Shown piece by piece: positions 2,833 to 63,421 of a stretch of 64,000 bases of DNA. Position numbers and translations under genes: made by a program. Source of the stretch: an uncultured Spirochaetales bacterium (GTDB taxonomy: Bacteria; Spirochaetota; Spirochaetia; JABEVK01); the NCBI GenBank assembly GCA_964475005.1, contig CAYYUZ010000003.1, forward strand, positions 3,500-67,499. The letters are read 5' to 3'. Below the pieces are notes generated by a model. The model saw nothing but the letters and a program-made list of their open reading frames with translations. It was not told the origin of the DNA and made no database searches. How positions within the stretch are numbered: the first letter of the stretch is position 1; each line of letters starts with the position of its first letter.

Positions 2833-3141
2833 ATGTACACAGCAACCATGGAGTATCAGTTCAAGCCCGAGCAAGTAGCCCTTGGCTGCCAAATCTGGCG
2901 GGAAACCGTCCTCGAAGCAGCACGCAACCGAAAGGGCTTTGTCCGAATGCAGCTCTTCTCACAAACCTCGGGGAATGTTTTGGCCATGGGCACCTGGGAA
3001 TCGAAGGGGAACGCCGAGGCTTTCATGCAGACAGGCGTCTTCGTCACTTTGAAGGAAAAACTCTCCCCCTTGATGCTCAAAGAGCCCCAACAACGGCTTT
3101 GGAATTTGGAAGGTTTTGCCGACACCTCGGGCGTCCACTGA
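2833..3141 (+). CDS. ABM (antibiotic biosynthesis monooxygenase)-like small protein
   Basis: 102 aa; ferredoxin-like ABM-type pattern (MQLFSQTSGNVLAMGTWESKGNAEAF). Confidence 0.45.
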   Translation: MYTATMEYQFKPEQVALGCQIWRETVLEAARNRKGFVRMQLFSQTSGNVLAMGTWESKGNAEAFMQTGVFVTLKEKLSPLMLKEPQQRLWNLEGFADTSGVH

Positions 3142-3322: not shown

Positions 3323-4582
3323 ATGAAACCGATCGTCACCCGCCTCTACGCCGTCTTGGTCGCCCTGACGCTGGTTGGTCTGGCCGCGTGGGCGGTGGCC
3401 GATTGGGTTCAACTTCAACAAAAGGCACAGGAGCTTGGGCGAACCGAACTTCGCCAAGCGGCTGGTCTGGTCTCAAACCTGACTCTCCACCCCGGAGTCC
3501 TGGAGGCGGCGGGTCTTGGCCGTGTTTTCTCGCAGGTTCCGGGGGCCGATCCGCATTGGAAGATGCTGCTTCTATCGTCGCCCGACCGGGGAACTGAGTA
3601 CTACCGGGGTCCCAGGACGCCGGTGCCTATTGATCGTGCAGTTCCTCGTTGGGAACCCCAGTCGATGACCGAGGTCAAGGTGGCTCTTCCCGTGTTTCGA
3701 GCCTCTGGCGAGCCGATGACCCTCGAGGGCATCTACCAATTCTACGGTCGGGGGGAGATTTTTCAGCTGTTGAAGGCCTGCGGCGCGACACTGCTGGTTC
3801 TGTTGGTGCTGACGACCATCGTGGTCTTTGTCTCGTCCCGCGTCGGAGAAGCTGAACCGGAAGAACCCAATGAAGAAGCCGAACCAAGCTCCTGGAGCCC
3901 TGAGGAGCCCGAACCGGCCGTTGAAAAGCTCGGTCCCTTGCCCCCGGAAAGAGACGAGGATTACTGGTTCGACGACACGCTGACGATGGAGGATCTGCCG
4001 CCTCTTGAGGAACCCCAGGGGCCTTTGCCCGAGGCCTACGATTCCGCGCCCGAGGACCACGCGCCGGCCACCTATGTGAGCGCACCGGCTGTGGCCTCCT
4101 CGTCCGCGCCGTCGCTGTTTGCGCCCGAATCCGGCTTAGGCTGGGAAGCGTTTTTGGCGACCCGGCTCGACTTTGAGCTCGACCGGGCCTCGGGTCAAAA
4201 CCAGGACTTAGCGCTCATCCTCTTTGAAATCAAATCCGGCTCCGTGATTCAGGCGACCTGGGGACGCCTCGTTCGCGATGCCTTCCCTTCCATTGACCTC
4301 GACTTTGAGTGCGAGGGCGGAGCCGCCGTAGTCTTACCTGGTCGCACCTTGGAACAGGCCCTCCAGGCCGCCAGGAGCTTCGTCGAAACTGCCGACCGCT
4401 CGCTGGGGGGTGCCCTAGTTCACGCCGGAGTCGCGGCGCGCGCGGGCCGCCTGCTGTCTTCGGACACGCTTTTGGGCGAAGCGGTTTCTGCCAAGCGAAG
4501 GTCTTTGGCAGGAACGGTTCGTGTCCTAGGGCTGAAGACCGACCCAGACCGCTACCGCGCGCACCTCAACGCCTCCGCCTAG
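3323..4582 (+). CDS. Membrane-anchored protein with Pro/Glu-rich disordered linker and degenerate GGDEF-like C-terminal domain
   Basis: N-terminal TM helix, a second TM around residue 150, an acidic low-complexity region, and a C-terminus (DLALILFEIKSG...GRLVRDAF...DLDFECEGGAAVVLPG...EQALQAA) that aligns to the GGDEF fold with the GG[DE]EF signature destroyed. RBS AGGAAATG upstream. Confidence 0.4.
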   Translation: MKPIVTRLYAVLVALTLVGLAAWAVADWVQLQQKAQELGRTELRQAAGLVSNLTLHPGVLEAAGLGRVFSQVPGADPHWKMLLLSSPDRGTEYYRGPRTPVPIDRAVPRWEPQSMTEVKVALPVFRASGEPMTLEGIYQFYGRGEIFQLLKACGATLLVLLVLTTIVVFVSSRVGEAEPEEPNEEAEPSSWSPEEPEPAVEKLGPLPPERDEDYWFDDTLTMEDLPPLEEPQGPLPEAYDSAPEDHAPATYVSAPAVASSSAPSLFAPESGLGWEAFLATRLDFELDRASGQNQDLALILFEIKSGSVIQATWGRLVRDAFPSIDLDFECEGGAAVVLPGRTLEQALQAARSFVETADRSLGGALVHAGVAARAGRLLSSDTLLGEAVSAKRRSLAGTVRVLGLKTDPDRYRAHLNASA

Positions 4583-7794: not shown

Positions 7795-8744
7795 TCGGAA
7801 GTCTCCTTGGAGGGGGACGAAGTGAGCTGGACGAACAGGTCCTCAAGGCTGATGGTCTGCGGGATAAGCGACACAAGTTTGGCCTTTTGGGCGACGGCCC
7901 AATCGAAGAGCAGCTCGCCTCCAGGCACGTCAACCGGAAAGGCACACGACACAAGAGGTTCGGGCCCGTCTTCGAGCAAACGGGGTTCACCCTTCATTTT
8001 TGCGAGCCCTGAGAGCGACTTCAGGGCCGCGGCGCCACCCAGTCCTTTGATCCTCAGCTCGAACCGATTCTCGCCCTGAAGGTTTTTGGCGATCTCCTCG
8101 GCCTTGCCCTCGGCGACGATCTTGCCCTGGTTCATGATCAACACGCGCTCGCAGATGGCTTCGACTTCCTGCATGATGTGGGTCGACAGGATGACGGTCT
8201 TTTCGCGGCCGATGTTGTGGATAAGCTGACGGAATTCAAGGATCTGGTGAGGGTCGAGACCCGTGGTCGGCTCGTCCAGAATCAGAATGGCCGGATCGGC
8301 CAAAATGGCCTGGGCCAGACCGACCCGCTGCCGCTGTCCTTTGGACAGATGGCTTGTCACCTTGTGGTTGAAGGCGGACGCGTCGGTCCTCTCGAGAGCC
8401 TTGTCGATGGCCTCGGAGCGGGTCTCGGGATCAAGCCCTTTGGCGCCGGCCATGAACTCTAGGTACTCGCGGACGGTCAGGTCGGGGTAGACGGGCGAGC
8501 TTTCGGGCAGGTAGCCGATCAGTGCTTGCGCCTGACGTGTCTGTTCGAGCAGATCGATTCCGCCAATCGAGATCGACCCTTTTGCCGGGAAGTGAAAGCC
8601 TGTCAACATCTTCATCAGGGTCGTCTTGCCGGCGCCGTTGGGACCCAAGAGCCCCACGATCTGACCTTGACCCACTTCGAAGCTGACGTCGTCGACCGCT
8701 TTGAAGGTCCCGTAGGACCTGGTGAGGTTCGCTACTCTAATCAT
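7791..8744 (-). CDS. gldA: ABC transporter ATP-binding protein (GldA-like)
   Basis: Walker A (GPNGAGKTT), ABC signature (LSKGQRQR) and Walker B (ILILDEP). Start trimmed to MIRVANLTRSYG at 8744, preceded by GAGGAAGAAG RBS. The longer ORF to 8804 would overlap rnz. Confidence 0.8.
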   Translation of the reverse strand: MIRVANLTRSYGTFKAVDDVSFEVGQGQIVGLLGPNGAGKTTLMKMLTGFHFPAKGSISIGGIDLLEQTRQAQALIGYLPESSPVYPDLTVREYLEFMAGAKGLDPETRSEAIDKALERTDASAFNHKVTSHLSKGQRQRVGLAQAILADPAILILDEPTTGLDPHQILEFRQLIHNIGREKTVILSTHIMQEVEAICERVLIMNQGKIVAEGKAEEIAKNLQGENRFELRIKGLGGAAALKSLSGLAKMKGEPRLLEDGPEPLVSCAFPVDVPGGELLFDWAVAQKAKLVSLIPQTISLEDLFVQLTSSPSKETSE

Positions 8745-31999: not shown

Positions 32000-32348
32000 A
32001 TCGATCGACCCAAGACCGGAGAAGGAAGGATGTGATTCCCTCGTTGTCTTATTGTCGATCACTTGGCATCTCACGAACTGGCTCCATGGAACATGAGTCG
32101 CCAATCAGACCGCCAACGCATGTTCTGAGCATCGACGCGGTTCGAGGAAGGAAGAGAAGTATCTGCCCTTGCGGAGCTTAGGGATCTTCAGGTTCAGCCA
32201 CCCATCCTGGTCTGAAGACCTCGGCCTCCATGAGCTTTTGAAGAACAAACTATCCTAGCTGCGGTAGCAGGTCGCCCCCGGTGTGATTCCATTCTGCCTC
32301 AATCATTGCCGACCGGCGACAGTCAACCAATTGGGGAGACTCTTACAC

Positions 32349-32605
32349 CACTCCAGCGGTTCTGCCCTTGAGTGAGCGAAGCGATTTCCGCTGAAACCCT
32401 TTCTGCTGATGCTTTTTCACTTTCAGCATCTGCTGAAACGAATTCTCCTGATGAAGATTTGTCCTCTTCATCTGCTGAACGGGTTTCTCCTGATGAATGT
32501 TTGGTTTCAGCATCTGCAGAATTGAATTCTTCAGATGAAGTTTTCCTTTCGACATCAGCTGAACGTCCGTCAGCACATGCTGAAACAAATTCTCCTGATG
32601 AATTT
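32349..32605. repeat. Degenerate tandem repeat array, about 5 copies of a 40-57 bp unit with internal palindrome TCAGCAtcTGCTGA
   Basis: Units (TCAGCATCTGCTGAAACGAATTCTCCTGATGAAGATTTGTCCTCT and variants) read directly. AT-rich. Both strands give repetitive ORFs judged non-coding. Confidence 0.6.
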
Positions 32606-32660
32606 TGCCATTTTCCGGTTTTTTCACAAGAGGCAACGGAGATAGCGAAGAAGACCGAAC

Positions 32661-32727
32661 CACGGATAAACACGGATTCACACGGATGGGAAAAGGATCA
32701 ATCGGTGTTGATCCGTGTCCATCCGTG
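32661..32727. repeat. CACGGAT direct-repeat triplet plus nested inverted repeats
   Basis: CACGGATaaaCACGGATtcaCACGGATgg ... GGATCAA-tcggtg-TTGATCC ... CCATCCGTG, just past the stop of the convergent PilZ-like gene. Confidence 0.55.
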
Positions 32728-32798
32728 GTGAATCCCCCTTTCTGCCCATCCACTGTGTTCCTCTTCTCCGATGACTCCGCGTTCTCTTGTTCAGAATC

Positions 32799-33860
32799 TC
32801 AGGGCGTAGGACTCTCGGCTTCGACCTTTGGCCCTTCCTGGGCCTCCTGCACCTTCTGTTTCATGTACGCGATCAGACGGCTCTTGGTCGCTATGTCGAG
32901 ATACAGGAAAAGCAGACCGGCCTCATTCGTGCCTGAGCTTGTCATGAAAGCCTGCGACGGGACGACTTCGATGGGACCGAAGGCCCAATTGCGGGTGGCG
33001 CCTCTCTCCCCAAAAATCAACTGGTAGATCTGCCCCTTCTTCAAGGGCCGACCGACCTGCACTCGCACGCCTTCCAGACTCAAGTCAAGAACCTTCACAG
33101 TCTCGTTGAACGTGGTGCGAGGGTCGGCGATCGACCCCGACGCGTTGTCGAGCCCGATGCGCGAGTAGCGGCGGCCTGCTGTCAGAACCACCTCTTCGGG
33201 TTTGCGCAGAAACAGGCCGACGTCGTTGCGCACGTCGGTGATGACCGTCGATCCCTGAAGGAAATTCTTCCCCACGTTGTAGTTGAGCTGAAGAGCCGTT
33301 CCCTTTTTGAGAAACTCAGGAATCGGCGGACGGTATTCGACAACGATGTGTTTGCCGGTGATTTCAAGCACCTTGGATTTGATCAAATGCAGGGTTCCCG
33401 CCGTCGGGAAATCAAGCTCGATGTCGAAGCCCTCCTCGAGGGGATAGTTCTGATTGATGAAATCTTCAACTTCCTTTTCGGTGGTCTTCATCCGGTGAAG
33501 CTCGTAGAAAAAGAACTCAGAGTACTTCTCAAGAACCGACGACGGAACGGCTTGCGCCGAGCCCTCATGGTGCCGGAACTCGTTGATCAGTTCTTGAATG
33601 CGTTTTTGCTGGAGAGGGTTGAGCCGGCCGACCGCAGGAACGTACTTGGCACGGATCGGCGCGTCAGACCCCTCGGCCATGCCGGGTCCCCGTTTCTGGA
33701 AGCGCTTCTTGGCGTTGCCGTAACGTTGAACCAGGTACCACACCCCGACTACAAGGCCAATAACAACAAAAAAGCCAACAATGAGACCGATATTTCCGCC
33801 GCCCCCGCTGGAACTGAAGCCTTGGGCAAATTGGTTTTGCCAGGCGCCGCCATCATTCAT
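32799..33860 (-). CDS. Membrane-anchored PilZ-like domain protein
   Basis: Start trimmed to MNDGGAW (AGGTGGGGG RBS). Gly-rich segment, one TM helix, then a cytoplasmic domain with RRYSRIG...DNASGS resembling the PilZ RxxxR / (D/N)xSxxG c-di-GMP motifs (imperfect). Confidence 0.4.
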   Translation of the reverse strand: MNDGGAWQNQFAQGFSSSGGGGNIGLIVGFFVVIGLVVGVWYLVQRYGNAKKRFQKRGPGMAEGSDAPIRAKYVPAVGRLNPLQQKRIQELINEFRHHEGSAQAVPSSVLEKYSEFFFYELHRMKTTEKEVEDFINQNYPLEEGFDIELDFPTAGTLHLIKSKVLEITGKHIVVEYRPPIPEFLKKGTALQLNYNVGKNFLQGSTVITDVRNDVGLFLRKPEEVVLTAGRRYSRIGLDNASGSIADPRTTFNETVKVLDLSLEGVRVQVGRPLKKGQIYQLIFGERGATRNWAFGPIEVVPSQAFMTSSGTNEAGLLFLYLDIATKSRLIAYMKQKVQEAQEGPKVEAESPTP

Positions 33861-41322: not shown

Positions 41323-41339
41323 AGGGCAAACTCCGGGAG

Positions 41340-41500
41340 AAAAAGGAAAAGAGACAGGATGACGGGATTTTCAGGATTCACAGGACAGAGAGAATCAGAA
41401 AGAAAAGACGAAGGAGCCGGCATTTTCGGGACTGCCTTCCCGACTCCCTTTGCCTGGATCCTGTTAATCCTTCTCTTCATCCTGTAATCCTGTCACATTC
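41340..41500. repeat. GACAGGAT-family MITE/REP-like element (copy A) inserted between dppB and dppC
   Basis: Left end GAGACAGGATGACGGGATTTTCAGGATTCACAGGAC; right end ATCCTGTAATCCTGTCACATTC, the inverted complement of the left-end motif; internal hairpin CGGGA-aggcag-TCCCG. Confidence 0.55.
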
Positions 41501-41507
41501 TTTCATT

Positions 41508-42524: not shown

Positions 42525-42612
42525 GAGGTACAAGCCGTCCAAAAAAAAAGGAACCTCCCTTAGGAGGTTCCTCGGCAGTCTATCAGCAAACCCAGAGTTA
42601 GGAAAGGTCCAT

Positions 42613-47287: not shown

Positions 47288-48313
47288 ATGAGCAAAGGAT
47301 ACCCAATGAATCTTTCAATTTTCAAAACACTTCTGGCGGCCGCCCTCTGCACCTTTCTAGCCTTGCCGGTTTCGGGACTCACCCTGAAGATCGCCTCGGT
47401 AGCCCCGGAAGCCACCCCGTGGGGCGCCGCTCTCAACAAATTGGCCGCCGACTGGGAACGCATCACCGGCGGGCAGGTCGTGGTCAAGATCTACCACAAC
47501 GGCATCGCCGGCAGCGAGGCCGACATGCTCCGCAAGGTCAAGATCGGTCAGCTTCAAGGCGGCGTGTTCACGAGTTTCGGTTTGAACTCGATCACGCCGG
47601 AAATTCTCACCATGAGCGCTCCCCTGCTTATCCACAACAATGAAGAATTGAACTTTGTCCTCGACAAGAACCGCGCGACCTTCGAAAAAAAGATGCTCGA
47701 CAAGGGTTTTGTCGTGCTGGCCTGGTCGAAGGCCGGCTGGGTGAGGTTCTTCTCGAAGAAGCCCGTCTTCGTCCCCGCGGACCTGAAGAAGCAGAAACTG
47801 TCCACCGACCCCACCGAGGTTGCGCTCTCGGGAGCCTTCACAAGCCTGGGTTACCAGTTGGTGCCGGTCAACCTTTCGGAAACTCTTGTGGCCCTGTCGA
47901 GCGGCATGGTCGATGCCATCTACATCAGCCCGCTGGCGGCAGGCGGCATGCAGTTTTTTGGGGTGGCGAACAACATGGTCAACCTTGACGTCGCCCCGTT
48001 TCTGGGCGCCATTGTGCTGTCAACGTCGGTTTGGAACAAGATTCCCGCCGACCAGCAGGCCAAGCTCATCGAAAACAGCCTTTCGTTGGAGAAGGAACTC
48101 GATTCTCAGGTCGTCGACCTCGAGGCCAAGGCGGTGACTTCGATGCAGAAGTACGGACTGATCGTCAACAACCTGACACCGGCGCAACGACGGCTTTGGG
48201 AGCAAGACGCGAACGAAGGGCTTCCCCGCGCCATGGGAACTTCCTTCGACAAGGAGACCTTCGACCGCATCAGCGGACAGTTGAAAGACTTCCGGGCGGC
48301 ACAGAAGAAATAA
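47288..48313 (+). CDS. TRAP transporter substrate-binding protein (DctP/TatP family)
   Basis: Signal peptide, DctP-family size and pattern. Confidence 0.75.
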   Translation: MSKGYPMNLSIFKTLLAAALCTFLALPVSGLTLKIASVAPEATPWGAALNKLAADWERITGGQVVVKIYHNGIAGSEADMLRKVKIGQLQGGVFTSFGLNSITPEILTMSAPLLIHNNEELNFVLDKNRATFEKKMLDKGFVVLAWSKAGWVRFFSKKPVFVPADLKKQKLSTDPTEVALSGAFTSLGYQLVPVNLSETLVALSSGMVDAIYISPLAAGGMQFFGVANNMVNLDVAPFLGAIVLSTSVWNKIPADQQAKLIENSLSLEKELDSQVVDLEAKAVTSMQKYGLIVNNLTPAQRRLWEQDANEGLPRAMGTSFDKETFDRISGQLKDFRAAQKK

Positions 48314-48460
48314 GGGACAGGATTGCAGGATTTTGCGGATGGACAGGATTGGGGAGATCTTTGGGGAAATTCTCGGACCTCCCCGAGGCTTCTTGGTCCG
48401 CCTTTTTCATTTTCTCCTGGGAATTCTCCTCAATCCTGTCATCCTGTCACATTCCTTTCT
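48314..48460. repeat. GACAGGAT-family MITE/REP-like element (copy B) between convergent dctP and mnmA
   Basis: Left GGGACAGGATTGCAGGATTTTGCGGATGGACAGGATTGGGG; right CAATCCTGTCATCCTGTCACATTCC. Collinear with copy A end-to-end. Confidence 0.55.
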
Positions 48461-49528
48461 TCAAATTACCGAGAGGATCATCCCGGCGCCCAGGCACTCT
48501 TCGCCGGAATAGAACACCGAGAACTGGCCGGGGGCGATGCCCAGGTCGCCGGTTTCGAGGTGGACCGCCAGACGACTCTGATCGGCGCTCGGCTGGACCC
48601 GGCAGCGCACGAGCTCAGGTCCGTGGCGAAGTTTGCAAGTGAGCGGTTCGTCCGCCGTCGGCGGCCTATGAATCCAAGTCAGCTCGCCAACCACGAAATC
48701 GCTGCGGTTCTGCTCGGCGCGGTGTTCCTGATGACTGACGAGCACCACGTTGGTCTCCACATCCTTGCCGACGACGTACCAGGGGCCGTTTCCTAGTCCT
48801 AGGCCAGATCGCTGCCCGATGGTGTGAAACCAGTACCCCTTGTGCTCCCCCAGTTTCTTGCCGCTCTCGCGATCGACGATGGCTCCTGACTTTTCGCCCA
48901 AGTAGTATTTGACAAAGTCGTTGTACTTGATCTTGCCGAGGAAGCAGATTCCCTGGCTGTCCTTTCGCGCCTGGTTGGCCAAGTTGTACTCGTGAGCCAG
49001 TTCGCGGACGCGGTTCTTGAGGAGTCCCCCAATAGGGAATTCGATCTTGGAGACCTGAGCCTGGCTGAGATGGCTCAAGAAGTAAGTCTGGTCTTTCACG
49101 GGGTCGGGAGAACGCAGGAGGCGGACGGGACCGCCTGATCGGTCGACGACGCCATAGTGTCCGCTAGCGACCCGCTCGAAGGACTCGCCCACCTTGTCGT
49201 AGAAGGCTCCGAACTTGACCCTCTGGTTGCAGAAAATATCGGGAGAGGGAGTGTGCCCCACCCTCAGTTCTTTCAAGGCGTACTCGACGACTTTTTCGTA
49301 GTATTCGGCCTGAAGGGGAACCACCTTCAGGGAAACCCCCGCCGCATCGCACACCGCGCGGGCGTAACCCAAATCCTCTTCCCACGGGCAATCGCCTAAG
49401 TAGCTGAGTTCGTCTTCCAGCCAAATCTTGAGGTAGTAGGCCGTCACATTGTTACGGCCTTGCCGAAGGAGCTCGTAGAGCGCCACGGAACTGTCGACTC
49501 CCCCCGAAAGGAGCACAGCGGTCTTCAT
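48461..49528 (-). CDS. mnmA: tRNA-specific 2-thiouridylase
   Basis: PP-loop SGGVDSS at the N-terminus, 355 aa. Confidence 0.85.
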   Translation of the reverse strand: MKTAVLLSGGVDSSVALYELLRQGRNNVTAYYLKIWLEDELSYLGDCPWEEDLGYARAVCDAAGVSLKVVPLQAEYYEKVVEYALKELRVGHTPSPDIFCNQRVKFGAFYDKVGESFERVASGHYGVVDRSGGPVRLLRSPDPVKDQTYFLSHLSQAQVSKIEFPIGGLLKNRVRELAHEYNLANQARKDSQGICFLGKIKYNDFVKYYLGEKSGAIVDRESGKKLGEHKGYWFHTIGQRSGLGLGNGPWYVVGKDVETNVVLVSHQEHRAEQNRSDFVVGELTWIHRPPTADEPLTCKLRHGPELVRCRVQPSADQSRLAVHLETGDLGIAPGQFSVFYSGEECLGAGMILSVI

Positions 49529-60454: not shown

Positions 60455-61268
60455 TTCCAAACCGCACTACACCCACCTGGGGCACTCCAACCCCTGGCCC
60501 TTTGTCGCGTCTCTGGGCCTGATGATCGGCGTCTTCGGCCTGCTGTTCACCATGTACAAGAACCCCGTTGGCTGGATGTTTGTGACCATTGGCGGCGGGC
60601 TGTTCCTCATTGCCGTGTTCACCTGGCTAACCACCATGGTCCGGGAAGACATCGGCGAGGCCACCGAACACACAGTTCCCGAGTTCCCCAGCATCGGAAA
60701 GTGGATGGTCGGGTTCCTCATCCTTTCGGAAGTCTTTCTGTTTGGGGCTCTATTCGCCACCTACTTCTACCTGCGCAACCACGACCAGGTTTATACCCAG
60801 AGTCTTTTGCACTACTACGAAGTCAATGGCGAAGTGTTCCAGATTTGGGGTCTTGTGCCCATTCTCAACACAATCTTTCTTGTGTCGAGTTCGGTCACTG
60901 TGCACTTTGCCGAAGAGGCGTTGCGCCACGGCAAGGCCAAAGTCTTTCAGATTTTGATGGCCATTACCGTGGTTCTCGGCGCGTTGTTCGTCGGCGGCCA
61001 GGCGTTTGAGTATTGGAACTTCTCGGTCAACGAGCATTTCACGCCTCAGACAAGCACCTTCGGGGGCACGTTCTACACGCTGACCACCCTGCACGGCATG
61101 CACGTCTTTGCGGGCGTAATCGTGCTCACCAGCCTGCTTGTCGGGTCGTTCTTCAAGAGCCTGAGCCCCAAACGCCACGTGGCGCTGACCGTGGCTTCGG
61201 TGTACTGGCACTTTGTCGACGTGATTTGGATCATCCTGGTGTGCGTGATCTACCTGCGTTTGATTTAG
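60447..61268 (+). CDS. coxC: Cytochrome c oxidase subunit III
   Basis: 273 aa, 7 TM helices, overlaps the coxA stop. Confidence 0.85.
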   Translation: MADSKPHYTHLGHSNPWPFVASLGLMIGVFGLLFTMYKNPVGWMFVTIGGGLFLIAVFTWLTTMVREDIGEATEHTVPEFPSIGKWMVGFLILSEVFLFGALFATYFYLRNHDQVYTQSLLHYYEVNGEVFQIWGLVPILNTIFLVSSSVTVHFAEEALRHGKAKVFQILMAITVVLGALFVGGQAFEYWNFSVNEHFTPQTSTFGGTFYTLTTLHGMHVFAGVIVLTSLLVGSFFKSLSPKRHVALTVASVYWHFVDVIWIILVCVIYLRLI

Positions 61269-61280
61269 CCGCCCCTTAAG

Positions 61281-61325
61281 AAATGTGACAGGATTTCAAG
61301 ATTTGCAGGATTGACTGGATAGAGG
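61281..61325. repeat. GACAGGAT-family element, short copy C (end motif only)
   Basis: AAATGTGACAGGATTTCAAGATTTGCAGGATTGACTGGAT, 13 nt after the coxC stop. Confidence 0.5.
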
Positions 61326-61331
61326 AAAAAG

Positions 61332-61362
61332 AGAGGAGGCCTTGAGGGCCTCCTTTTTTGTT
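61332..61362. terminator. Rho-independent terminator (bidirectional candidate)
   Basis: GAGGAGGCC-ttga-GGGCCTCCTTTTTTG; A-run on the other side also allows termination of the convergent FMN-reductase gene. Confidence 0.7.
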
Positions 61363-61373
61363 CACCAGAAACT

Positions 61374-61940
61374 TTAGCCCCTTCTCATCGGCTCTAGGGC
61401 GATAGCCCATTTTTCTAGAGCGGCCAGCATGGTCAGCGCTGCCTTGTTCTGTTCCTCCGTGGGCTTGAACTGGCCGCTGGCGTCAACAAACTGACGGTAG
61501 AACGGCAAATACACGGCTTCTGAGATCGGCATCATGTTGAGCGCCGTCAAGACCGGTTTCATCATCTGAATCGAACGGCTCCCTCCCGCGACGCCGCCGT
61601 AGCCGACAAAGGCGACGGGTTTGTGCTTCCACTCGTGAAACAGGTAGTCGATGGCGTTCTTGAACACTGCGGTGAATCCGTAGTTGTACTCGGTGGCGAT
61701 GACGACGAACGCGTCGGCGTTGTCGATGGTCTTGCTCCAGGCCTTGGTGTGGTCTTGCGTGTACAGACGTTTCGTGGGGTGTTCCGGCTCGTCGAGGAAC
61801 GGAAGGTTCACCTTGGCCAAATCAAGAATCTCCACGTCAAAGGCGGGCAGGGTCTTGGCCAAGCCCTCGATCCACCCGGCAAACAGCGGGCTGACGCGAC
61901 CGGGTCGGGTCGAAGTAATCAGAATCTTCAAGCGAATCAT
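61374..61940 (-). CDS. NAD(P)H-dependent FMN reductase family protein
   Basis: 188 aa flavodoxin-like fold; N-terminus KILIITSTRPGR and family size. Confidence 0.7.
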   Translation of the reverse strand: MIRLKILITSTRPGRVSPLFAGWIEGLAKTLPAFDVEILDLAKVNLPFLDEPEHPTKRLYTQDHTKAWSKTIDNADAFVVIATEYNYGFTAVFKNAIDYLFHEWKHKPVAFVGYGGVAGGSRSIQMMKPVLTALNMMPISEAVYLPFYRQFVDASGQFKPTEEQNKAALTMLAALEKWAIALEPMRRG

Positions 61941-61984: not shown

Positions 61985-62010
61985 GAAGCGACAGGATGAC
62001 GGGATTTTCT
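61985..62010. repeat. GACAGGAT-family element, short copy D
   Basis: GCGACAGGATGACGGGATTTTCTAG is near-identical to the left end of copy A; it sits in the divergent promoter region. Confidence 0.5.
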
Positions 62011-62116: not shown

Positions 62117-63421
62117 TTGAAACTCACTTGGCCGATCTTCATCGAAGGGATGACGGGAGGTTTGGTCACCCTGACCGACATTTGGTTCCTGAGCCACATT
62201 TCCGATGAAGTCGCCGCTTCGGTGGGCATGGTGGGGGCCATCCTGACCTTGGGGTACTTTGTCCTTCCTCAGTTCACCTCGGCCGGGGGCAGCGTGGCAG
62301 CGCAGTATCTGGGGGCCAAGAAAGACGAATACGCGACGCCCACCTATGTGGCGACCCTGGTCCTGGGGTTGGTCCTAGGAGGACTGCTTACCTTGGGAAT
62401 TGGTCTGGGCGCAGGGAATCTCGGAACTTGGCTTGGACTGGACCCGGCGGGGAACGAGTATTCCCGGCAGTACCTGAGTGTCATTGCTTTCAATTTCATC
62501 GTTGTGGGACTGCGGTCCTCGTACTGGGCCATCTTATCGGCCAATACCCTCACCAAATGGAACATGGCCTCGGCCATCGTCACAGACGTCCTCAACATCC
62601 TGCTCTGTTATCTGTTCATCAACGGTGGGGGCCCTATCCCCAAGTTAGGGATCTCAGGGGTTGCGCTGGCCACCCTTTTGGCCTACCTCACAGGTTTTGG
62701 TGTCTATTTCTACTTGGTCCACTTTCGACTCAGGGTCAGTTTCGGTCTGAAGAAATGGGTGGGAAAGATCCGCCAGGTGTGGGGGCCCATCTTGAGAGTC
62801 GGGCTGCCGTCCGCGATGGAGCCGTTCAGCTGGACCGTGCAGAACTTTGTAGTGAGCATCATCATCATCCACCTGGGGGTTCCGGCCATGAGCGCGAACA
62901 CCTACGTTCTGCGGCTCATCTTTCTCGACCTCACCGCCAGTTGGGCGCTGACCTCGGCGGGCCAAATTATCATCAGCCATCAGTTCGGTGCCAGGAACCT
63001 CGACGAGGTCCACAAGACCTACCTACGGATCGTCAGGTATTCCATGATATTCGCCTTCGTCAATCTTCTTCTGTACCTGGCCTTCAGCGATGCCCTCTTG
63101 TCCATCTTCACCCACGACCCTCAGATCAAGCAGATCGCTTTTTGGCTTCTGTTTCTCAGTGTGTTTATCGAGCCGATCAGAGCGATCAATATTCTGGGGG
63201 GAATCGCTCTCAAGACCGTAGGCGACGGTAGATTCTCGGTCACCATGGCTATGGTCTTCATGTGGGGTCTGATCCCCGTTCTTCTGCTTGCCTCGCTTTG
63301 GGGATGGGGGATTGTCGGCTTCTGGTGCTGTCTGTTGTTCGATGAGACTGTGCGGGCCGCCCTCAACCTTTGGCGTTGGCTTCAGGGAAAATGGCGGAAG
63401 AATTCGGTGATTGGGACCTGA
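62117..63421 (+). CDS. MATE-family efflux transporter
   Basis: 434 aa, 12 TM helices, MatE-like N-terminus (WPIFIEGMTGGLVTLTDIWFLSHIS). Confidence 0.7.
   Translation: MKLTWPIFIEGMTGGLVTLTDIWFLSHISDEVAASVGMVGAILTLGYFVLPQFTSAGGSVAAQYLGAKKDEYATPTYVATLVLGLVLGGLLTLGIGLGAGNLGTWLGLDPAGNEYSRQYLSVIAFNFIVVGLRSSYWAILSANTLTKWNMASAIVTDVLNILLCYLFINGGGPIPKLGISGVALATLLAYLTGFGVYFYLVHFRLRVSFGLKKWVGKIRQVWGPILRVGLPSAMEPFSWTVQNFVVSIIIIHLGVPAMSANTYVLRLIFLDLTASWALTSAGQIIISHQFGARNLDEVHKTYLRIVRYSMIFAFVNLLLYLAFSDALLSIFTHDPQIKQIAFWLLFLSVFIEPIRAINILGGIALKTVGDGRFSVTMAMVFMWGLIPVLLLASLWGWGIVGFWCCLLFDETVRAALNLWRWLQGKWRKNSVIGT

Follow-up and report, generated by a model that had tools for sequence, protein, structure and literature searches.

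Tandem-unit palindromes in a Spirochaetales genome apparently belong to a wide, cross-phylum family partnered with a predicted PD-(D/E)XK nuclease

The window (the whole 64-kb stretch of Spirochaetales DNA that was analysed) carries on its minus strand a peptide/nickel ABC transporter operon in the order SBP_bac_5, BPD_transp_1, a gene-less element here called A, BPD_transp_1, and then two ABC_tran genes. A fills the 185-nt spacer (41323-41507) between dppB and dppC, and this whole spacer is predicted to fold into one long hairpin. The element itself (41353-41494) is a convergent pair of arms facing each other. The arm on the side of the dppB stop codon, A_R (41458-41494, minus strand), starts 13 nt past that stop, has GAATGT in front of it, and reads on the minus strand GACAGGAT TACAGGAT GAAGAGAAGGAT TAACAGGAT; the second arm, A_L (41353-41386, plus strand), reads GACAGGAT GACGGGAT TTTCAGGAT TCACAGGAC and has its outer end 30 nt from the dppC start codon (41322). 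The dppC gene has its own GGAG ribosome-binding site. The original prediction placed A inside the dpp operon and had it co-transcribed with the genes; the location is right, and co-transcription agrees with the lack of a predicted terminator inside A, which is no proof of read-through. A strong terminator-like hairpin, with an 11-bp stem and a T-run, lies at 42548-42573 on the minus strand, in the gap between the substrate-binding-protein gene and dppB, the usual position of an attenuator.

B (48316-48448), the second convergent pair, lies between the convergent stops of a DctP-family gene (47288-48313) and an mnmA-like gene (48461-49528, minus strand). Its plus-strand arm B_L (48316-48349) begins 2 nt past the DctP-family gene stop, and its minus-strand arm B_R (48414-48448) follows the mnmA-like gene stop with GAATGT in front. 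C is a solo plus-strand arm (61287-61320), with the coxIII stop codon (61266-61268) on one side and a conserved terminator hairpin (61334-61354) on the other. D is a truncated plus-strand arm of two units (61990-62005; 61990-62009 over its full 20 nt), between divergent genes at 61374-61940 (minus strand) and 62117-63421 (plus strand); its 20 nt, GACAGGATGACGGGATTTTC, match the start of A_L at 20 of 20 positions.

These four copies, which the original prediction had named, hold six related arms: two each in A and B, one in C and half of one in D. Their consensus is GACAGGAT-nACAGGAT-TnnCAGGAT-TnACAGGAT, about four tandem units of 8-9 nt, and all six fit the definition that we set here of about four 8-9-bp units with an ACAnnAT-type core and an outer GAC (D being truncated). 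The motif is well above chance. We counted GACAGGAT nine times in the window where 1.72 occurrences are expected, a count reached in none of 100 shuffles, and GAATGTGACAGGAT three times at up to two mismatches where 0.22 are expected. A profile built from the arms recovered exactly these six in the window (E 5e-11 to 7e-8). The next match, at E=0.45, is a lone GACAGGATGACGG at 8185-8197 (plus strand), without an array and in a coding-dense part of the window, and is probably due to chance.

The inverted arms are 34-37 nt long, as the terminal inverted repeats of MITEs call for, and A and B are predicted to fold into long imperfect hairpins of -60.7 kcal/mol (z -2.2) and -61.2 kcal/mol (z -3.2), with their GGA motifs paired. 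Inverted ends were correctly anticipated, except that these are not ordinary terminal inverted repeats but arrays of four 8-9-nt units. The same pair had been described as full and collinear. The arms are indeed alike (z 4-6 over shuffles), but the centres, at z about 2, barely rise above shuffled sequence, so the copies are not really collinear: the A centre (41387-41457) has no homology to the B centre and no terminator-like site, and the B centre (48350-48413) holds a weak terminator-like hairpin at 48371-48388. Exact copies of A were found in three assemblies from other samples and of B in two; since both recur base for base, they are not assembly artefacts.

A further hairpin at 32659-32735 has the layout of A and B built from a variant unit, CACGGAT (ACCACGGAT AAACACGGAT TCACACGGAT ... 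GATCCGTGTC CATCCGTGGT), and CAGGAT and CACGGAT unit families thus coexist in the window. It neighbours a 42-nt tandem repeat (32423-32544, 2.9 copies, with sub-units CTGCTGAA / CCTGATGAA) that may be another array type; the intergenic region around them (32000-32800) is unusually long, at about 800 nt. The only Rfam family over threshold in the window is a glycine riboswitch aptamer (RF00504, 9852-9971, plus strand; 51 bits against a gathering score of 32).

Relatives of this genome show that the sites are polymorphic. Where DppC is 82% and 75% identical, the end of dppB overlaps the start of dppC by one to four bases, and on this comparison the overlap is the presumed ancestral state (DppC relatives at 73-75% identity are labelled Spirochaetia at NCBI). 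A would then have replaced an ancestral overlapping stop/start. Two closer relatives, at 93% and 89%, have 154-160 nt of other palindromes at the dppB-dppC junction, one with AAAAGTTGGGTGAGGCC ends and the other with CACGAAGG-like tandem units and outer flanks that it shares with the window; both also carry extra tandem-unit palindromes at the dppC-dppD junction, a gap of 7 nt in the window. At the two dpp junctions these palindromes occupy 2847-3000 and 3892-4029 in locus L203, and 2841-3000 and 3892-4147 in L205, and they include AAAAGTTGGGTGAGGCC ends and arms of CACGAAGG- or ACGGAGA-type tandem units. Downstream of coxIII, an 88%-identical relative (L209) has kept the terminator and lacks the 34-nt arm C. 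Orthologous junctions that are either empty or otherwise filled show the elements to be inserted, unstable DNA.

Elsewhere, CAGGAT pairs are nested within CACGACGG/CACGAAGA tandem-unit pairs (L063, 5010-5200; L074, 2300-2510; Lacipirellulaceae MAG), which suggests that the elements insert into one another. Together the differing junctions and the nesting mark these places as sites of repeated gain, loss or replacement. We see no direct repeats at the ends of A, B or the gene-bearing cassettes described below, and no recent empty site is close enough to fix the boundaries; flanks are often inverted rather than direct, with a T-run on one side and an A-run on the other, or purine-rich and pyrimidine-rich sides.

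The family is not peculiar to this genome but spans many phyla. We scanned 596 Gb, one genome per species, for the pattern GACAGGATNNCNGGATN{3,8}GGATNNNCNGGA, for which about 1.6 chance matches are expected by our own arithmetic, and found at least 118 stretches, spread over more than 10 phyla or candidate phyla and mostly arranged as convergent pairs. Among the matches listed are Planctomycetota, Verrucomicrobiota, Kiritimatiellae, Lentisphaerae, Acidobacteriota, Gemmatimonadota, Spirochaetota, KSB1, Omnitrophota and a few others. Nearly all are MAGs, and the pattern is confirmed by one isolate and several long contigs. The consensus of 138 arrays, T-n-GACAGGAT-nACAGGAT-TnnCAGGAT-TnACAGGAT-T, extends that of the window arms; positions left free by the search pattern are 73-92% conserved, and 112 of the 138 have the unit spacing 8-9-9. 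The window copies are therefore gene-less members of a dispersed, intergenic, palindromic family that is REP- or MITE-like in habit, much as the original prediction had it, and a lineage-specific MITE is ruled out by the cross-phylum scan and the non-homologous centres.

The arm architecture held up in a looser scan, restricted to 824 kb of the matched loci. It yielded 167 arrays (shuffled sequence gives 10), of which 122 consist of exactly four units, and pairs were convergent in 38 cases against 4 divergent and 3 tandem. Spacers within pairs are mostly 10-110 nt, with 21 of the 38 at 10-30 nt, and most seemingly single arrays proved on inspection to have a degenerate partner arm. Centres vary even within single Pirellula and Lacipirellulaceae genomes, and linker identity is 0.68 between the arms of one pair but 0.52 between loci. 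On these sequence comparisons, selection acts on the units, the cores being kept while linkers and centres drift.

Some loci depart from this layout. Two metagenome loci (L162, 470-2807; L143, 2118-2326) have several same-strand arrays spaced every ~66 or 104 nt, a regularity that points to local tandem amplification of arms, and one viral contig (L240) has at least 10 tandem GACAGGAT units. A phage vector was considered and rejected: 30 of 34 matches in a viral scan are one conserved phage coding sequence (…HKDRIAGFSDVRDD…), a chance match, and true arrays occur on only three of the viral contigs (L216, L235 and L240 among L211-L244). A Pirellula MAG (L025) has an Acido-Lenti-1 RNA (RF01687, 875-919, minus strand; 42 bits against a gathering score of 37) ~4 kb from its array and apparently unrelated to it.

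In the window, arms tend to follow stop codons. The original prediction put their ends 10-25 nt past the stops of A, B and C and read this as oriented insertion or retention at gene 3' ends. We measure 6-12 nt to GAATGT and 12-18 nt to GACAGGAT, and B_L, only 2 nt past its stop, follows the trend as well; oriented retention, however, fails in other genomes, where, among 111 arrays, the outer end of the arm faces the 3' end of the neighbouring gene 55 times and the 5' end 56 times, a test resting on crude longest-ORF gene calls. Showing no 3'/5' bias at its outer ends, the element acts like a symmetric feature of the DNA.

The arrays are tightly associated with one gene family. When the 714 long ORFs of the array loci were clustered, GxxExxY was the sole array-linked family. 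Three of the four convergent pairs with spacers longer than 150 nt (L047, L053 and L067) have a GxxExxY gene inside. Spacers of ~370-410 nt in planctomycete, Opitutia and Terrimicrobiaceae genomes enclose an ORF of ~125 aa that matches TIGR04256 "GxxExxY protein" (E 1e-42) and PF13366 PDDEXK_3 (E 5e-41). The fit is close: the sense arm ends 1-17 nt ahead of the GxxExxY ATG in all three loci, and in L047 and L067 the antisense arm begins 4-17 nt past the stop. Such a cassette is also present in an isolate, Phycisphaeraceae bacterium D3-23 (complete genome CP114179.1), as TGA/TGACAGGAT...ATG...TAA...ATCCTGTC/AAAAAA between two sugar-nucleotide genes, at the same junction as in a planctomycete MAG. 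In the orthologous cassettes L047 and L207 the proteins are 66% identical, the CNGGAT cores intact and the linkers different. In L053 (4403-4975 and 5022-6197) one reading frame of the antisense arm lacks stop codons. It translates as NPVHPDNPANPV or NPFNPENPV and continues in frame into prepilin-like N-termini (SAFSLIELLV), so that the GxxExxY ORF stays open as far as the following gene; gene-calling programs could join or lengthen ORFs here.

The association also holds in the reverse direction. We fetched the best 80 GxxExxY loci from JGI metagenomes regardless of repeats; among the 70 genes whose flanks are long enough, two or more CNGGAT units lie within 130 nt of the gene in 81%, and on both sides of it in 59%, figures for genes that are the matches closest to queries themselves taken from array-flanked genes. 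Background windows of the same metagenome loci have such units in 6% of cases. The usual layouts are arm-gene-arm and hairpin-gene-hairpin. The IS200/IS605 TnpA suggested as one candidate for the partner is thus replaced by GxxExxY, a PD-(D/E)XK protein; the 64-kb window itself has no GxxExxY gene or gene remnant.

Most of the metagenome exceptions keep the layout and use another unit: ACAGAAT, ACATGAT, CACGGAT, AACATA, AAGAACA or ATAGGAT. CACGGAT-unit arrays, of the kind seen in the variant hairpin of the window, flank GxxExxY genes in L148 and L201. In these variant families all units of both arms change together, a concerted change that suggests one common determinant of specificity. For two variant unit types, the proteins that have the unit in common are reciprocal nearest neighbours, and for another two types they are near neighbours; such covariation of unit and protein would equally follow from simple co-inheritance of the cassette.

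The GxxExxY protein is a predicted nuclease of the Cas4-like PD-(D/E)XK fold. A 40-sequence alignment shows the PD-(D/E)XK signature: E27, E76, K78 and Q90 do not vary at all, and conservation of D66 is 90% or higher. The AlphaFold2 model (pLDDT 88.6) has its best solved-structure matches in Cas4 SSO0001, lambda-exonuclease-like nucleases and a restriction-endonuclease-like protein, and weak matches to Cas4 profiles agree with these. A sequence search detected no relative in the PDB, and the search for defence-system or phage-family membership returned the weak Cas4 matches and no PHROG match. The protein family is large, with at least 7,964 clusters (90% identity) at E<=1e-10 among 8,000 candidates. 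In the searchable literature GxxExxY or PDDEXK_3 is mentioned in passing only, with its function unknown, no paper contains the tandem motif, and we found no description of an array-GxxExxY system, although the database comments of TIGR04256 might already note flanking repeats.

We lean towards reading these elements as a REPIN/RAYT-like system built on a PD-(D/E)XK nuclease, with the window copies as its non-autonomous members. The units would be the binding sites of a GxxExxY nuclease encoded elsewhere in the genome, perhaps an oligomer that matches the four sites; it would act in trans on the hairpin- or cruciform-forming pairs and spread or maintain them as RAYT does REPINs, with a PD-(D/E)XK in place of an HUH active site. 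We know of no PD-(D/E)XK protein of about 125 aa that transposes DNA alone. In the host, A would simply be transcribed along with dppB and dppC, as a hairpin of roughly 140 nt between them, most likely just adding a structured spacer to the dpp mRNA.

A possible objection is that only the full cassette moves or homes, and that gene-less pairs and solo arms are dead relics left after deletion of the gene. Cassettes with the gene exactly between the arms do exist, as do solo and truncated arms such as C and D, and the unrelated, length-variable centres fit repeated gene loss from full cassettes as well as they fit miniatures mobilised in trans. We nevertheless consider relics unlikely. First, spacers fall tightly at 10-30 nt in 21 of 38 pairs, rather than in the broad spread of deletion remnants. 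Second, many GxxExxY genes have a complete short hairpin, not a single arm, on each side, so that the hairpin looks like a unit of its own. Third, gene-less elements exceed cassettes by roughly 20 to 1 in the 824 kb, and no gene remnant was detected in the window.

Another objection is that the arrays are sites for some other conserved host protein, or terminators or mRNA stabilisers, and that GxxExxY genes merely land in or beside them. Conservation of the core across phyla would suit this, as would the stable RNA folds predicted for the pairs and the frequent abutment of arms on stop codons and terminator hairpins. The unit sequence, however, changes together with the clade of the adjacent GxxExxY gene, which is not what one conserved host factor would predict; presence or absence differs among close relatives, and orientation relative to genes shows no preference. 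A terminator would also do harm at the position of A, within an operon, and none is predicted there. We judge this explanation quite improbable.

The arms also resemble CsrA/Rsm-type RNA arrays, in which CAGGAU(G/U) repeats in 3' UTRs or sRNAs would be sponges for a GGA-binding protein; this is one form of the RNA-level function that the original prediction entertained. The CAGGAT unit is what we take to be the CsrB heptamer core, several arms follow stop codons in sense orientation, and A_R gives a weak RsmY match. That match scores only 11.8 bits (E=1.3), where the gathering score is 57, and over the arms no Rfam family passes its threshold. Both orientations to genes are equally common, pairing would bury the arms in duplex, and the rigid 8-9-9 spacing and the nuclease-gene link point to DNA. 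Sister families, moreover, keep the layout without GGA (ACAGAAT, ACATGAT, AACATA). On the Rfam scores, the absent strand bias and these GGA-free sisters we reject the sponge reading, to which we give very little credence. A standard MITE whose parent is a conventional DDE or HUH insertion sequence, and whose ends are repetitive by chance, would explain small, intergenic, non-coding elements with inverted ends and insertion polymorphism, but is scarcely believable when the sole gene recurrently inside the arms is GxxExxY, not a known transposase, the centres of copies lack homology, no target-site duplication could be made out and the REP tags GTAG/CGTC are absent. We also discarded a sigma-70 promoter, suggested by TTGACA at the arm start: conservation of the T-T is partial, and there is no -10 element behind it.

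The preferred reading, a REPIN/RAYT-like system, can be set against the known systems. REPs are defined by a GTAG or CGTC tetranucleotide at one end (PMC3733652), and the REP literature also ties them to HUH transposases. Like REPINs, our elements are short extragenic repeats dispersed in intergenic DNA, mostly hairpin-capable inverted doublets with a short spacer, with singlets and clusters too, and with a small dedicated nuclease gene that is itself repeat-flanked and with whose lineage the repeat sequence covaries. Unlike REPINs, they have a PD-(D/E)XK (Cas4-like) partner rather than an HUH/Y1 transposase, outer ends of T-n-GACAGGAT without a GTAG/CGTC tag, arms of four direct 8-9-bp units rather than a single imperfect palindrome, and a gene often inside a pair; different phyla have the unit core in common, while REPs are for the most part specific to a lineage. 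Correia/NEMIS elements of Neisseria, ERIC, RUP and BOX are likewise 100-200-bp intergenic palindromes that lie between operon genes, form long RNA hairpins, and are present or absent among relatives. Those elements, however, have a homologous interior, length classes and usually target-site duplications, each in one genus or family, while here the arms alone are conserved and the family spans phyla.

Resemblance to other systems is more partial. CsrB, RsmY and RsmZ share the repeated CAGGAU(G) motif, but the arrays lack sRNA gene architecture, are not strand-specific, fail the Rfam models and have sister families without GGA. Proteins can read short contiguous repeats: MetJ met-boxes and omega-protein heptads are contiguous 7-8-bp units bound cooperatively. 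The likeness to our tandem 7-9-bp units in direct and inverted arrays is an analogy only, since the MetJ and omega sites are single regulatory loci under ribbon-helix-helix repressors, neither dispersed nor nuclease-associated. Free-standing homing-endonuclease cassettes and the ORFs of 23S rRNA intervening sequences are also small, selfish-looking ORFs bracketed by inverted repeats at gene junctions; here the elements do not share one conserved target gene, repeats are far more numerous than ORFs, and GxxExxY is no recognised homing-endonuclease family.

Taken more broadly, GxxExxY and its tandem-octamer arms may form an unrecognised cross-phylum class of mobile DNA, a second REPIN/RAYT-like replicator, independent of HUH, in which a Cas4-like nuclease reads the arrays, the central bases of the unit set specificity and several specificity families share a genome; we put this forward tentatively. 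A practical consequence concerns annotation, in that the arrays can be misread as CsrA sponges, as terminators or as short NPVNP-type ORFs. If our interpretation is true, a very large family of orphan proteins gains both a function and a DNA partner, and there is an explanation for common intergenic palindromes in the poorly studied PVC group, Acidobacteriota, Gemmatimonadota and Spirochaetota. It would also mean that a lifestyle of the REPIN type arose a second time, on a different nuclease fold, and the modular units, with their fixed frame and variable core, would offer a tractable case of nuclease-DNA specificity.
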